64,000 nucleotides of DNA from Marine group II euryarchaeote REDSEA-S42_B7. GTDB taxonomy: Archaea; Thermoplasmatota; Poseidoniia; Poseidoniales; Thalassarchaeaceae. Where the stretch lies: the NCBI GenBank assembly GCA_001629255.1, contig LURZ01000001.1, positions 6,850-70,849 of the forward strand. The letters are read 5' to 3'. This document shows, piece after piece, positions 4,731 to 39,497 of the stretch. Each line of letters starts with the position of its first letter. Position 1 is the stretch's first letter. Under the pieces are notes generated by a model, which saw nothing but the letters and a program-made list of their open reading frames with translations, did no database searches and was not told where the DNA came from. Made by a program: the position numbers and the translations under genes.

Positions 4731-5750
4731 CTACCCTACAGAGACCTTACCCTCGGAAATTATCGTTGTCTCCTCGAGCAATACCTCCGGGGACGTCATT
4801 GTTCCTCTGTGATGTATCCCCACCCGTATAGAACCCCCCAGGTGAGTGTTGTCTCCAAAGCCGAAGTAAGCACCTCCACGCAGGACTAGATCCTCAACCC
4901 GATTACCGACGAGCTCACTGGCCTTGGGGTTCATTCCAAAACCGAACTCTGCAACCGTCCAAATAAGGTCCTTCTTGGAACTCCTTATGCCTGCTTTCGC
5001 CATTTCGAAAGACTCCTCTATCTCACTGGCGATTTGCCCTCCGGAGATGTTTACGACCATTCCTTTCACAATGTTTAGCGACAGGGGCTCTTCTAGAAGA
5101 ATGCCCTCCCAGGACCCGTCGATCACGATAGTCCCGTTCATGCTCCCCTCTTTGGGAGAGACGAAAACCTTGCCAGCGGGCAAATTTGCTATTTGGCCAG
5201 GCCTGTTGCATATTCCATTGTCCTCAAGCACCCATCTCCCACCTGTCAGGAACTCTATTTCAGTGCCAGATGGGGAACTGACGCGGACCCTCCTCTTCCT
5301 CCTGAATACAGAACCCATCCCGCTGATCTCTCTCTGGAGGGCGTTATAGTCCGCGGTCATGCCTCCAGTCTCGAATGAGATTCTCCCTATGCCTGGCATG
5401 GACACTATCCTCGCCCCTTCCTTAGTAGCCTGTTGTCTGGCTCTTGTGTGCGTCATAGAGTCCTTGGTTGCTATTATTATCACCCTGTTCTTCCTCATTA
5501 TGTCCGCCACAGGTAAGGGGGGTTCCTTGCCTGGCTTCTGTGTTGGAGGCATCATAACAAGCAGTATCCTGTCCGTTACGCGTGCAGCCTCTTCGTAGAT
5601 TGATTGTCCTACTTCTGCCGTCTCAGGATCCGTGATGACTAAAACATCCTCCTCTCTCCTCACTTGAAGGCATGTCCGAATAACTGACCTAGCGGTAGAC
5701 AGCATCGCCTCCGATGTATTATCCCTAGTTCCCCCTCCCTCAGTCGACAT
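4731..5750 (-). CDS. putative aminopeptidase (M29/AmpS-like); family assignment uncertain
   Basis: The AEFGFGMNP and FGFGDNTHLGG...HHRG blocks are reminiscent of thermophilic M29 aminopeptidases. The assignment is weak. Confidence 0.3.
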   Translation of the reverse strand: MSTEGGGTRDNTSEAMLSTARSVIRTCLQVRREEDVLVITDPETAEVGQSIYEEAARVTDRILLVMMPPTQKPGKEPPLPVADIMRKNRVIIIATKDSMTHTRARQQATKEGARIVSMPGIGRISFETGGMTADYNALQREISGMGSVFRRKRRVRVSSPSGTEIEFLTGGRWVLEDNGICNRPGQIANLPAGKVFVSPKEGSMNGTIVIDGSWEGILLEEPLSLNIVKGMVVNISGGQIASEIEESFEMAKAGIRSSKKDLIWTVAEFGFGMNPKASELVGNRVEDLVLRGGAYFGFGDNTHLGGSIRVGIHHRGTMTSPEVLLEETTIISEGKVSVG

Positions 5751-29973: not shown

Positions 29974-30482
29974 ATGAGAATTCTCTTTGTCACAGGTAAC
30001 CAAAATAAGGTAACCGAAGCACACGGCATACTCTCTCCCCTAGGTTTCGTTATTGAGCAGTTATTAATTGGGGGTCAGGTCCCAGACCTAATCGAGCCAC
30101 AAGCAGAAGGAATTGAGGAGGTTGCTAAATCTAAGCTGGACCAAGCCGTTTCGCTAACAATGGGTACAGAATTTGAGAATGAGGCATTACTTGTCGAGGA
30201 CTCCGGCCTATTCATTGATTCTCTTTCGGGCTTTCCGGGACCTTATTCCTCGTTCGTCCAGGAGACAATCGGATTGTACTGACCTCCACAGGAATATGCA
30301 GAGGTTTTATTTCAGAAAATATATCTGGTGATTTTGGCTTTGGCTTTGACCCCATTTTCATCCCCGAAGAAGCCAATGGTAGGACATGCGCCCAACTGTC
30401 TTCTCATGAGAAATCAACCATCTCGCATCGTGGATTCGCTCTAAAGGGAGTTTCTGAACTCCTGAATCCCCCGTCAAAGTGA
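29974..30482 (+). pseudogene. non-canonical purine NTP pyrophosphatase (Ham1/RdgB/ITPase), interrupted by a frameshift at about 30280
   Basis: The N-terminal half (MRILFVTGNQNKV…) ends at a TGA at 30280. The C-terminal half with the diagnostic FGFGFDPIFIP…ISHRGFAL motif continues in another frame through about 30482. Confidence 0.7.
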
Positions 30483-35162: not shown

Positions 35163-35624
35163 GTGGTCAGAAGACTCGTTATCATGCGTCATGCGAAAAG
35201 CAGCTGGAAAGATCAGAACTTCGATGATCACGAACGACCACTGAACAATAGGGGCAGGAGGGATGCTCCCATAGTGGCAGATGCAATTTTCGATAGGGGT
35301 TGGATTCCAGAACTTATACTGGTTAGCAGTTCGAAGAGGACTCTCCAGACTCTGGAGGGGATGTCTCACAGGATGGGAAAGATTCCATTCCAGGTTAGAC
35401 CGGGAATCTACCATGCGACAGTGTTAGACCTAATGGAAGAATTGGAAGATGTGTGGGATAACGGGACCACCATGATAATTGGCCACAATCCTGGCTCGGA
35501 GATTCTTGTGAACCATCTCTCCGGAGAATGGCATACAATGCCCACTGCAACCGCGGTTTTATTGGGCCACTCGGGATCATCATGGACGGTCAAGGACGTT
35601 ATTCGTCCAAAGGAGATTGAATAG
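35163..35624 (+). CDS. histidine phosphatase family protein (SixA-like phosphohistidine phosphatase)
   Basis: The RHG motif reads IMRHAKS, and a second His lies in IIGHNPG. The start is taken as the GTG directly after the upstream stop; the track ORF starts earlier and overlaps. Confidence 0.6.
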   Translation: MVRRLVIMRHAKSSWKDQNFDDHERPLNNRGRRDAPIVADAIFDRGWIPELILVSSSKRTLQTLEGMSHRMGKIPFQVRPGIYHATVLDLMEELEDVWDNGTTMIIGHNPGSEILVNHLSGEWHTMPTATAVLLGHSGSSWTVKDVIRPKEIE

Positions 35625-36758
35625 TCAAGGATGCCCGGGGACATCATCAGACCAGTGTGACATCTTGTTCAGAGTGATGGTCACATTAGTCACCTCTCCT
35701 TGTTCCCAGTAATCAACACCAACGAATGTCGGTCTATTTCCTACAGTTTCCCAGCATAACAGAGCTCTCTGCAATAGAGTATCGTAAGCATTGACCTGAG
35801 ACGCTTTAATTGGATCCGCAAATCCAAAATCGCTGTTTAACCAGTTATTCATATGCCAAACAGGTTGATTTGAATCGCCTCTTCCAAGATCGCAGGTCAT
35901 TTCTTCTTGGCTAGATTCTCCATACGGGGTATCCCAAGTATGCCTCCAAGCCGGCAATAATTTAGTGAAATTATCTTCATATTCCATCTGTATGAAAATC
36001 AAGACATCAGTCCCAGATAGTGACATATCCCCTAAAGACGGCCATGGGCTTCCTAATTCGTGGATGTAAGCCCTCTCCAAGATTCCTGTTTCATTCAGCA
36101 GGTACTCCAGATGCTCTCCCGGTACCGCATAGTTCTGTATCAAAAGACTGACAACGTCTCCGCTGCTATTATTATGGAGGGAATTGAGACTTCTGAGCCA
36201 AGCAAAGGCATCAACACTACCAAACAAGCATGGGGGCGTATTCGGCAAGGACGGTGCATGGCAAAAAACCACGTCCTCTTTTTCACTATTAAATTCAGAC
36301 TGGTGATAGGGGTCTAGCATGAAAGCTCTGATGCCACCCTCCCATTGACTCCGCAAACCAGTTAGATGGTTTATTCCGCCCATTATGCCATCTTCTGGGG
36401 TGGAGAATGAGTTATGACTCTCTGCGAAGGTGAAATCGTCATATGTTCTAAGGCAATAACTAGCCTCTCCGTGACAGGCGATAAAGTCATTCGGATCCAT
36501 CGGATTGAAACCCCTCTCTAACTCCCAATCGTTTGGGAGATCATCGCCATCCGCATCGTCATCCCACTCATCACACTCCATGTCTCCGTCTAGATCGTCT
36601 GGTACAGATTCACTATCAACCGGGTCAGTTCCGCACATCGCTTCCTTGGCATCGCTCCAAGAATCCCCATCATCATCCAAGTCATTGAGGTCGCATTGTG
36701 AATCGCCATCAGTGTCAGTCGGTATCACGTGCAGTTCATTTCCTCGGAGTTGCTCCAA
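35625..36758 (-). CDS. secreted Ca-binding (thrombospondin type-3-like Asp-rich repeats) protein with PLC-like phosphodiesterase domain; its N-terminal signal peptide is encoded in another frame (frameshift)
   Basis: Repeated D-x-D-G-D-x-x-x-D…WSD motifs, then an AESHNSF (PI-PLC X-box-like) domain. On the minus strand at 36760-36891 a separate frame encodes MQKKLFSFLLCVSLITPGC…DGDGWSNSEEMNCT*, a signal/lipobox-like leader plus the first Ca-binding repeat. The two frames join near 36758. Confidence 0.5.
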   Translation of the reverse strand: MEQLRGNELHVIPTDTDGDSQCDLNDLDDDGDSWSDAKEAMCGTDPVDSESVPDDLDGDMECDEWDDDADGDDLPNDWELERGFNPMDPNDFIACHGEASYCLRTYDDFTFAESHNSFSTPEDGIMGGINHLTGLRSQWEGGIRAFMLDPYHQSEFNSEKEDVVFCHAPSLPNTPPCLFGSVDAFAWLRSLNSLHNNSSGDVVSLLIQNYAVPGEHLEYLLNETGILERAYIHELGSPWPSLGDMSLSGTDVLIFIQMEYEDNFTKLLPAWRHTWDTPYGESSQEEMTCDLGRGDSNQPVWHMNNWLNSDFGFADPIKASQVNAYDTLLQRALLCWETVGNRPTFVGVDYWEQGEVTNVTITLNKMSHWSDDVPGHP

Positions 36759-36925
36759 CCATCGCCATCGATATCCAGATCCTCAGCGTCCTGAATACCA
36801 TCTCCATCCATATCAGGGGGAGGAGCTTCCAAGCATCCTGGTGTAATTAGCGAGACGCACAACAAAAAGGAGAACAATTTTTTTTGCATTTGCCGGTCAT
36901 CCTACCTATCAAATCCAGTGGCATC

Positions 36926-37753
36926 CTAGTCCATAACGGTCTCGTGGTGATCAGGGACGAAAGTCTGCTCAGTCATTGGTGGTCTCACGTATCCTCTCGC
37001 GGTCTTCCTCTCTGGAAGCTCTATCGGCTCTGGAGTAAGGTCCTCGTACTCAATCATAGAAAGTAGATGGCTAATGCAATTTAAGTGAGCATGCCTCTTG
37101 ATATCGGAATTAACCACGAACCATGGGGACTGCTTAGTGTCAGTGTGAGCGAACATCACGTCCTTTGCCTCCGAGTAGTCTTCCCAGCGTGTGAGTGACT
37201 CTAGATCCATCGGACTAAGCTTCCACCTCTTGTGCGGTTCGTCCAATCTTGCCTTGAAACGTTTCAACTGCTCGTCATCGGAAACTGAGAACCAATACTT
37301 GATCAGAATCGTACCGGACCTCATTAGCATTCTCTCGAACATTGGGCAGGATCTCATGAATTCGTCATACTCTCCCTCATCGCAGAATCCCATAACCCTC
37401 TCGACCCCTGCTCTGTTGTACCAACTTCTGTCGAACATCACTATCTCTCCAGCAGCAGGGAGATGGTTGACGTACCTTTGGAAGTACCACTCGGTCTTTT
37501 GCCTCTCAGTGGGAGCCGGAAGAGCTGCCACCCTCACAACTCTGGGGTTGAGGTACTGCGCGATCCTCTTTATAACGCCACCCTTCCCTGCAGCATCTCT
37601 GCCTTCGAAGACGATAACAACCTTGAGTCCCTTAGCCTTCACCCATTCCTGGAGTTTGATGAGCTCTAGTTGTAGCCTGAATAGTTCTTTGTTGTACCGC
37701 TTCTTTCCTATTCTCTCTATTTTCTCGCTCCCATTGCCGCCCATTATAATCAA
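36926..37753 (-). CDS. polyphosphate kinase 2 (PPK2)
   Basis: PPK2 Walker A block VVIVFEGRDAAGKGG and a lid region, with a length of 275 aa. Confidence 0.8.
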   Translation of the reverse strand: MIIMGGNGSEKIERIGKKRYNKELFRLQLELIKLQEWVKAKGLKVVIVFEGRDAAGKGGVIKRIAQYLNPRVVRVAALPAPTERQKTEWYFQRYVNHLPAAGEIVMFDRSWYNRAGVERVMGFCDEGEYDEFMRSCPMFERMLMRSGTILIKYWFSVSDDEQLKRFKARLDEPHKRWKLSPMDLESLTRWEDYSEAKDVMFAHTDTKQSPWFVVNSDIKRHAHLNCISHLLSMIEYEDLTPEPIELPERKTARGYVRPPMTEQTFVPDHHETVMD

Positions 37754-37813: not shown

Positions 37814-38476
37814 TTAAAGGAGGCTGACAAGGTCAATCAGTGATGACCTAGGGTCTTCGGACTTGGTAACTCCACTAGCCAAAAGAACCCCTGAAGTGCC
37901 AAGTTGGATAGCCTTGGCCACGTCCCCGCCGGTCTTTACACCCGCACCGCATAGGATGCCAACACTCGAGGCCACTTCTCTGACTGCTTGGGCTGTACCA
38001 CTGACTATACCGGGATCAGCGCTAGTTACCGAAGTCTCGCCGCCAATCAACTCGGGCGGCTCCACAGCAACAAAACCCGGCTCCAATGCCGCCAGTGCCT
38101 TTGCCTCGTGAATGTCTGCGGCACAGGCGCAAACATGGAATCCATCTGGAATCTGCTCCATGAGCATAGCGACGTGTTCCAAGCTGACCTTGTGTTCCGC
38201 ATGATTGATCAGAGTTCCTGAAGCCCCCCTCTCCATTGCAGTTTCAGGGTGTAGCCACCCCGTATTCGAACCGAAACCTACGGGATCAAGATGCTGGCAC
38301 CATACCTCCAGTCCAGGAGCAGCAGCGACTACGGCAGACAGATCGAATGCAGAGACCGCAGCCACAATCCTAGCACCTGTATCTATGCTCTCCATAGCTC
38401 TAGCTAGATCTTCGGCACACGCCCCGTGAGCAGTCTCATAGGTCTTGAAATTAACAACAACTAGGGAGTCGACCAT
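37814..38476 (-). CDS. tpiA: triose-phosphate isomerase (archaeal type)
   Basis: N-terminal VVVNFKTY and catalytic EPPELIGG. Starting at the internal ATG (MVDSLVV) gives about 220 aa, typical of archaeal TIM. The track ORF is longer. Confidence 0.7.
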   Translation of the reverse strand: MVDSLVVVNFKTYETAHGACAEDLARAMESIDTGARIVAAVSAFDLSAVVAAAPGLEVWCQHLDPVGFGSNTGWLHPETAMERGASGTLINHAEHKVSLEHVAMLMEQIPDGFHVCACAADIHEAKALAALEPGFVAVEPPELIGGETSVTSADPGIVSGTAQAVREVASSVGILCGAGVKTGGDVAKAIQLGTSGVLLASGVTKSEDPRSSLIDLVSLL

Positions 38477-38546
38477 AGACCTCCGAGGGACCGGGCCTCT
38501 TTGACAATGACGGGATTTACAACCAATATCGTATCTTATTCCTGGC

Positions 38547-39497
38547 TTAACCATGATCGACGATTTCCGAACTCAAGTCAGAACCCTCTGGGACCATAGC
38601 CCCAATCCCTATCAGGCACCCTTCGATGTTACAATTAGGGCCTATTTCCGCTCCCTCCAGAACAACTGAGTCGCGAACAACCGATCCTTCCTCGATGCAG
38701 GCTCCGGAACCTATCGTGCTTGAGACAACCTTACCTTTGTTCGTAGAACCTTCTCCGAACCACGAGCCTCTGTCAACCGAACCGCTGTTGAAACTCCCGG
38801 CCGAGATACATGCTTGGCTCGCTTCTATGAACGACTTAGGAGTCCCCGCATCAACGAACCATCCTTCGAACGGGAAGCCGTTCAAGCCGCCGGCTGCAGC
38901 TAGGTTCTCGTAGACATCCCTCTCAATGCTATGCGCTCCGGCGGGCATCAAATTGAAAATCTCAGGCTCAAGGATGTATGCCCCCGCATTAATCAGATTA
39001 GAGAAAGCCTCCTCTATCGGGGGTTTCTCTTGGAACCTCATTATCTTCCCATTCTTTTCCCTGTAGTCAGCGACACCGAATCGGGACGGATCCTCAACTT
39101 CCCACAGTGAGATGGTTCCAATGCCTCCGTTACTCCTGTGGAATTCGAGCATCTCTTCCACTCTGAGACTGGTAATTAGGTCTCCGTTGATTACGCAGAA
39201 TGTTCCTCCAGAGAGATGCTCTCTGCAGTTTGCAATGGCCCCTCCAGTACCTAGCGGCTCGGTTTCTTCAATTATCTCTACCTCGTAGGAGAGACTAACT
39301 TTGGAGAAGTGATCCCGCATCTTCTCCATTCCATAACCTGCGGCAATGAGAATTCTGTTCACTTGAGATTCAGGGATTATCCCCACAACATGCTCAATCA
39401 TCGTCTTGTCCAGAATTGGTAAGAGGGGCTTTGGGATGCTTTCTGTCCAAGGTCGGAGCCTTGTTCCGAAACCTCCAGCCAGAACTATGACATCCAC
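38547..39497 (-). CDS. sugar-phosphate nucleotidyltransferase with C-terminal left-handed beta-helix domain
   Basis: N-terminal VLAGGFGTRLRPWT…PKPLLP (G-x-G-T-R-L) and a C-terminal hexapeptide-repeat region. Confidence 0.7.
   Translation of the reverse strand: MDVIVLAGGFGTRLRPWTESIPKPLLPILDKTMIEHVVGIIPESQVNRILIAAGYGMEKMRDHFSKVSLSYEVEIIEETEPLGTGGAIANCREHLSGGTFCVINGDLITSLRVEEMLEFHRSNGGIGTISLWEVEDPSRFGVADYREKNGKIMRFQEKPPIEEAFSNLINAGAYILEPEIFNLMPAGAHSIERDVYENLAAAGGLNGFPFEGWFVDAGTPKSFIEASQACISAGSFNSGSVDRGSWFGEGSTNKGKVVSSTIGSGACIEEGSVVRDSVVLEGAEIGPNCNIEGCLIGIGAMVPEGSDLSSEIVDHG

Follow-up and report, generated by a model that had tools for sequence, protein, structure and literature searches.

A 22-nt loss that splits a conserved PI-PLC-type lipoprotein gene of a Marine Group II archaeon is most likely an assembly artefact

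Introduction

In a public assembly of a Marine Group II (MGII) archaeon from the Red Sea, a lipoprotein-like leader and the enzyme body that follows it lie in different reading frames, which raises the question of whether the gene is broken in the organism, is functionally split, or was broken during assembly. The window, by which we mean the whole 64,000-nt stretch of DNA that was analysed, carries both parts on its minus strand. The leader ORF (36889-36725) runs from an ATG at 36889 to a TGA at 36727-36725 and encodes 54 aa (MQKKLFSFLLCVSLITPGCLEAPPPDMDGDGIQDAEDLDIDGDGWSNSEEMNCT), beginning MQKKLFSFLLCVSLITPGC and ending DGDGWSNSEEMNCT; it includes the Cys codon of a lipobox-like ITPG-C19 motif (36835-36833) and two DxDGD motifs (about 36814-36797 and 36781-36764). 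The body ORF (36758-35625), in another frame, comprises 377 aa when counted from a TTG at 36758, and is publicly called as a 367-aa product starting from a GTG at 36728 (35625..36728). It carries on the Asp-rich repeats (VIPTDTDGDS...; ...VIPTDTDGDSQCD...), with four further DxDGD motifs (36716-36543) ahead of the catalytic domain, and the TGA of the leader shares bases with the GTG of the body in a GTGA stop/start overlap.

An earlier note on this DNA had described the two frames and attributed them to a single base missing or extra within AACTGCACGTGATACC. The basic observation of a leader and a body in different frames holds. The size of the lesion, and the place where it arose, turned out differently once the locus was compared with related contigs and with a second assembly of the same sample.

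Results

DNA alignment with eight related contigs shows that the window is without exactly 22 nt, ACAACTGATCCAAATGATGCTG, which every close relative has at the junction and which amount to seven codons (TDPNDAD) plus one base. The exact position of the junction is ambiguous over the dinucleotide AC, between 36731 and 36728 on the minus strand (...GAACTGC|AC|GTGATACC...); the junction string in the window is GAACTGCAC|GTGATACCGAC and the sequence across it contains GAACTGCACGTGATACCGAC. Apart from this gap the alignments contain no indel anywhere in the gene, and both the TGA stop at 36727-36725 and the GTGA overlap are created by the junction itself. That the frames differ by one position is what a single-base sequencing error or indel would look like when the locus is seen without a reference, but the direct alignment leaves this reading with next to no credibility. 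A merge of the two ORFs corrected by one base did serve to find 445 relatives in a large protein collection; the merged product is 421 aa long, however, and the closest relatives (P0001-P0008, 95-97% identical) are all 428 aa, the difference being the TDPNDAD segment that they have in common. In the protein alignment the relatives read NCT-TDPNDAD-VIPTDTDGD where the window reads NCT*/VIPTDTDGD. We therefore dropped the one-base correction in favour of the 22-nt gap, with leader and body as two halves of a single conserved 428-aa protein.

A relative is encoded by 127 species-representative genomes, the best 80 of which all belong to Poseidoniales/MGII, single-cell genomes included. In 78 of these 80, leader and body form one ORF, and the two exceptions carry runs of N. 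This distribution bears on the idea that the split is functional, either through programmed ribosomal frameshifting or through translational coupling at the GTGA overlap, so that a short secreted Ca-binding lipopeptide and a leaderless enzyme would be made. The overlap of the leader's TGA with the GTG that gene callers take as the start of the 367-aa product gives the idea a certain appeal, but the relatives are in a single frame with 22 extra nucleotides and hold nothing conserved that could program such an event, the overlap is made by the junction, and a leaderless, Cys-rich Asp-repeat protein in the cytoplasm would make no functional sense. We consider a functional split to be extremely improbable, and set aside programmed frameshifting or recoding since the two-frame layout is not conserved.

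The provenance of the window is informative here. Its sequence is 100% identical to LUMT01000091.1, which belongs to LUMT00000000, an IDBA-UD v1.1.1 assembly of BioSample SAMN03860299 (Haroon et al. 2016, PMC4932879). This sample was taken at Red Sea Station 192 at 50 m depth and yielded about 10 M Nextera reads, each about 93 nt long; bins from the Red Sea assemblies were later scaffolded and gap-filled with FinishM, and the MGII bin of this sample is REDSEA-S42_B7, with 49.7% GC (PMC4932879). The GC content of the window is 49.2%. The deletion was found on LUMT01000091.1 and a second NCBI contig only. Exact look-ups placed the 54-aa leader product (P0121) on NCBI contigs only, and the 367-aa GTG-start product (P0124) on NCBI contigs and one ENA scaffold. 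A single assembly of a single read set is thus very probably the source of both NCBI contigs with the split gene.

The ENA scaffold, HARO16-1_SAMN03860299_METAG-scaffold_108 (L004 at this locus, L093 at the second locus described below), is an independent re-assembly of the same BioSample. Over 6.1 kb around the gene, 2 SNPs separate L004 from the window, N-runs aside. At the site it reads ...CTGCACAACTGATCCAAATGATGCTGACG-N10-GTGATACC..., which may also be written ...GAACTGCACAACTGATCCAAATGATGCTGACG-NNNNNNNNNN-GTGATACCGAC..., and so contains the 22 nt; its contigs are interrupted by N10 precisely at the deletion's right edge, and the right-hand contig begins where the deletion in the window ends. 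That P0124 turns up on this scaffold is due solely to the gene caller, which starts anew from the GTG that follows the Ns. The earlier note had proposed checking read support across the junction, and we approximated this through the re-assembly of the same sample; the window's sequence fails the check, since the 22 nt are present and the contigs break at that very place. A cluster of 11 upstream mismatches in L004, which we had considered as a strain switch, proved to be that scaffold's own N10 run, leaving the 2 real SNPs. The N10 break at 449-458 of L004 (window 38738-38748) is read through by the window with 11 nt and zero loss.

The gene is not the only one affected in the window. Set against L002 and L087, it is also short of 85 nt of unique sequence at about 30277, where a Ham1-like non-canonical NTP pyrophosphatase gene on the plus strand (29974-30282) is truncated to 102 aa by a junction at about 30276/30277, reading GGATTG|TACTGACC. 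The product is 197 aa in L089, L090, L092, L094, L095 and L096, 198 aa in L002, and 200 aa in L093, where it includes an N-run. As with the 22 nt, the 85 nt are found in the same-sample re-assembly (L093), which is interrupted by an N10 break 20 nt from the edge of the deletion, compared with a distance of 0 nt for the 22-nt loss. The two losses are 6.5 kb apart and both shift the frame. There are three N-breaks in the 13.9 kb, and two of them are matched by the window's deletions (2/2) at a distance of no more than 20 nt, for which the chance is about 8e-5. Across the N10 break of L093 beside the 85 nt (4956-4965, window about 30256), identity to the window passes from 99.54% to 100%, from which it follows that the sample contains at least two strains that differ by about 0.5%. 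A third loss was seen in L086 (LULP01001002.1), from an IDBA-UD assembly of another Red Sea sample of the same project. In this contig the essential triosephosphate isomerase (TIM) gene, which lies at 37814-38554 on the minus strand of the window, is short of 177 nt; the gap is equivalent to window positions of about 38004-38181 and is flanked by GTCAG microhomology. All other assemblies have the 177 nt, including the window, L004, L006 and L088.

Comparison with the wider population gave no second occurrence of either loss. The 22-nt and 85-nt losses were seen in none of the other samples, including L092 from the same station at 10 m, and in a metagenome contig collection the deletion junction (a 22-mer with one degenerate position) had 0 exact matches and the intact junction had 3. 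The three matches are contigs L086, L087 and L088, which are 99.4-99.5% identical to the window over 5.5-7 kb; none of them lacks the 22 nt, and within each of these long aligned blocks this gap is the sole indel. L001 (ERZ1756084 NODE_16349, coverage 2.4) is 99.9% identical to the window and also has the 22 nt. Deeper in the same gene, at window position about 36526, L001 is itself without 10 nt (GGGAGTTAGA); its gene call begins at a downstream Met (P0038, 291 aa) because of this 10-nt deletion, which is probably a low-coverage error.

Discussion

It is highly probable, in our view, that the frameshift arose in the IDBA-UD metagenome assembly through a local scaffolding error and does not belong to the organism's genome. 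De Bruijn assemblers normally require read support for every k-mer, which is a point against an artefact and means that it would have to come from paired-end scaffolding; IDBA-UD may join contigs at a negative gap estimate. In the mechanism that we propose, the assembly graph of a low-coverage, multi-strain sample would break at the site, and a paired-end scaffolding step with a mis-estimated overlap (the exact assembler step being inferred) would then join the two contig ends without Ns and with the loss of 22 nt. The end ...AACTGCAC would thereby be fused to GTGATACC..., and this join would create the in-frame TGA and shift the frame.

Scaffolds produced by IDBA-UD are known to contain a class of local scaffolding errors, and ra2.py is routinely used to repair them (PMC5220378). 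The present case resembles this ra2.py / fix_assembly_errors class in the small loss of unique sequence at a contig join, in the restriction of the loss to the output of one assembler, with recurrence in the same and a sister assembly, and in the coincidence of the loss sites with contig breaks from another assembler; it differs in that the exact step at the present site is inferred. The junction occurs in one assembly lineage, the missing bases are in the same-sample re-assembly, and the lesion lies at a contig join. Two further points weigh against an artefact. The N10 gap in the re-assembly means that the 22 nt are demonstrated to exist in the sample, which is not the same as an uninterrupted intact allele in that strain, and at least two strains are present, so that a real indel polymorphism could also break the graph at these spots.

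The latter point leads to the alternative of a real and very recent 22-nt deletion in one Red Sea strain, arising at the AC microhomology and producing a nascent pseudogene beside an intact allele, in which case the polymorphism itself would have broken the assembly graph. The coexistence of strains fits this, as does the 2-nt microhomology, of a kind common in real deletions; a different 10-nt deletion in the same gene of the low-coverage L001 and the status of surface proteins as frequent targets of loss also speak for it. Against this, one strain would need to have undergone two independent out-of-frame deletions, the 22 nt here and the 85 nt in the housekeeping Ham1-like gene, each of them absent from other samples including L092 and each falling on a contig break of the re-assembly. 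A simple bubble, moreover, would leave no N gap, since the intact branch connects directly to the shared right-hand contig. The window copy also shows none of the signs of a genuine pseudogene: the lesion is not reproduced in independent data, there are 0 private substitutions against five near-identical contigs, synonymous to non-synonymous codon differences to L002 (27:14) are like those of an intact copy (28:15), and all catalytic-type residues are intact. We therefore judge a real deletion to be unlikely. If it were true, it would represent strain-level on/off inactivation of a conserved surface-anchored PI-PLC-like lipoprotein in a natural MGII population, with intact and null alleles coexisting in one water sample.

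Returning to the scaffolding error as the preferred explanation, the gene in the cell is most likely an intact 428-aa ORF, and the frameshift itself is best not regarded as a real feature. The earlier note's treatment of it as a property of the genome is not supported by the same-sample re-assembly, in which the 22 nt occur and the contigs break at that very spot, nor by the second, similar lesion in a housekeeping gene.

What the note had said of the intact product fared better. It had proposed a secreted lipoprotein with a lipobox-type leader, Asp-rich repeats and a PI-PLC-like phosphodiesterase domain, and the 428-aa relatives and their domain matches bear out these three parts. The N-terminus is hydrophobic and forms a helix at residues 2-16 in the AlphaFold2 model of P0001 (pLDDT 78, pTM 0.71). 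The lipobox-like motif is ITPG-C in the window and ITSG-C in the relatives, with Gly18-Cys19 conserved at 90% or more in 36 homologues, and the protein is likely to be a membrane-anchored lipoprotein with a Sec-type leader whose lipobox Cys would be lipidated. The intact protein has six DxDGD motifs with interspersed Cys, all six of them kept in the window, and the repeat region is modelled with a pLDDT of 87-94.

The repeats resemble thrombospondin type-3 and bacterial TSP3 repeats (PF02412, PF18884) in their tandem DxDGD motifs and interspersed Cys, and thrombospondin 1ux6 is among the Foldseek matches at 28% identity; they differ in that the MGII protein scores just under the Pfam gathering cut-offs. 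Of the two profile searches that the note had suggested for the corrected translation, the one for the PI-PLC X domain was positive and the one for TSP3 fell short, the TSP3_bac/TSP_3 scores being 23.9 bits for the leader and 22.5 bits for P0001 against a gathering cut-off of 25 bits. Some relatives do carry a precomputed PF18884.6 match, and the same Asp-rich repeats occur many times in giant proteins. The DxDGD repeats are possibly of the calcium-binding type, and the enzyme may be stabilised by Ca2+.

The PI-PLC X-type (PLC-like phosphodiesterase) domain spans 286 aa (35628..36485, minus strand) and is defined by precomputed Pfam annotation and a profile match to the PDB. Precomputed Pfam assigns PF26146 (PI-PLC_X) and PF26178 (Rv2075c_cat) to the window's own 367-aa product and to all relatives. 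Local Pfam and NCBIfam scans of the body gave zero matches and a single-sequence phmmer search against the PDB gave noise only. We therefore searched the PDB with a profile of 50 sequences from the family, the most distant of them at 25% identity. It matched Listeria PI-PLC (2plc/1aod) with E = 6.4e-8 and the Bacillus enzyme (1t6m) with E = 3.4e-5; the E-value was about 4e-3 for Staphylococcus and about 0.01 for both PLC-delta1 and PLC-beta3. The aligned region is the catalytic half-barrel, in which tHNa pairs with GTHDT, GvRalmLD with GIRY--ID, and cHG with YHG. Across the 50 sequences there is no variation at H166, N167 and H218, and R195 and D200 are nearly invariant (90% or more). The catalytic His (base), Arg and His (acid) are all present in the window, within the conserved motifs SHNSF (36419-36405), GIRAFMLD (36335-36312) and FCHA (36266-36255) on the minus strand. 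Foldseek searches of the PDB with the full-length model returned weak matches (E = 0.015-0.025, TM 0.2-0.48), and the top high-probability matches, again with weak E-values, were all PLC-like phosphodiesterase barrels, namely sicariid PLD, GDPD and PLC-gamma2. The PI-PLC X-type domain that the note had recognised is thus upheld by the Listeria match, the conserved His/Arg/His and the precomputed annotation.

The His/Arg/His motifs align with those of the bacterial PI-PLCs (Listeria PlcA, 2plc/1aod; Bacillus, 1ptd/1t6m) and of the eukaryotic PLC X-box, and we take the His-Asn dipeptide of the MGII protein to resemble the HN of the latter. The match to the bacterial enzymes spans about 95 residues of the N-terminal half, whereas the remainder of the barrel is divergent. 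The MGII protein further differs from them in its lipobox leader, its stalk of Asp-rich repeats and a number of conserved Cys. With PF26146/PF26178, named after the exported M. tuberculosis protein Rv2075c, it shares the precomputed matches and numerous relatives of about 300 aa at roughly 30% identity, although membership rests on precomputed annotation and the local Pfam copy gave no match. The family of about 300-aa catalytic domains counts 2309 representatives at E <= 1e-3, a number to be read with the fact that many of the top matches cover the repeat region only. Our search of the literature on Rv2075c and PLCXD function found nothing relevant to prokaryotes and no experimentally defined function for the family. 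Judged from these sequence comparisons, the protein is likely to be an extracellular PI-PLC X-type phosphodiesterase that would cleave a phosphoinositide, GPI or glycerophospholipid head group by means of a His/His acid-base pair and an Arg.

The note had also called the architecture unusual for an archaeon. This is not so: given the 127 species-representative genomes with a relative, the best 80 all being Poseidoniales/MGII, the leader-repeat-enzyme architecture is the norm in Poseidoniales and is widespread in Marine Group II archaea. The underlying gene is therefore a conserved, uncharacterised Poseidoniales PI-PLC-type lipoprotein in an already catalogued Pfam family. Its neighbours in the window are polyphosphate kinase 2 (PPK2; 36926-37753, minus strand) and a histidine phosphatase (His_Phos_1; 35163-35624, plus strand, a 153-aa public gene call). 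Among Poseidoniales loci, PPK2 is adjacent in 26/66 and the histidine phosphatase in 18/66, and the arrangement is limited to a subclade. We consequently rejected a conserved operon with these two genes; there are hints of a phosphorus-related neighbourhood in one subclade only. Scavenging of lipid head groups or of organic phosphorus is a reasonable candidate role for the protein.

The locus also calls for caution in the use of public MAG and metagenome assemblies, since in this one short pieces of unique sequence are missing where contigs were joined, silently and unmarked by Ns. Such losses mimic frameshifts and pseudogenes. Two of them lie 6.5 kb apart here and a sister assembly has a third; on assemblies of this kind, counts of pseudogenes, calls of 'split genes' and screens for recoding will give inflated numbers. 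As a by-product, the analysis documents silent deletion artefacts for one public MAG assembly.

Other irregularities in public assemblies were met among the proteins related to this one. Two proteins that cluster with the 54-aa leader, P0122 and P0123, were considered as independent truncated alleles and rejected, as both end in LSLIHI, which is translated Nextera adapter; P0122 has, in addition, a different 1-nt frameshift. The adapter sequence in question is CTGTCTCTTATACACATC, and its translation indicates untrimmed adapter at contig ends in public assemblies. Finally, P0138 is a chimera in which a foreign N-terminus is fused inside the Asp-rich repeat region; as the join lies within the repeats, this region evidently misassembles easily.
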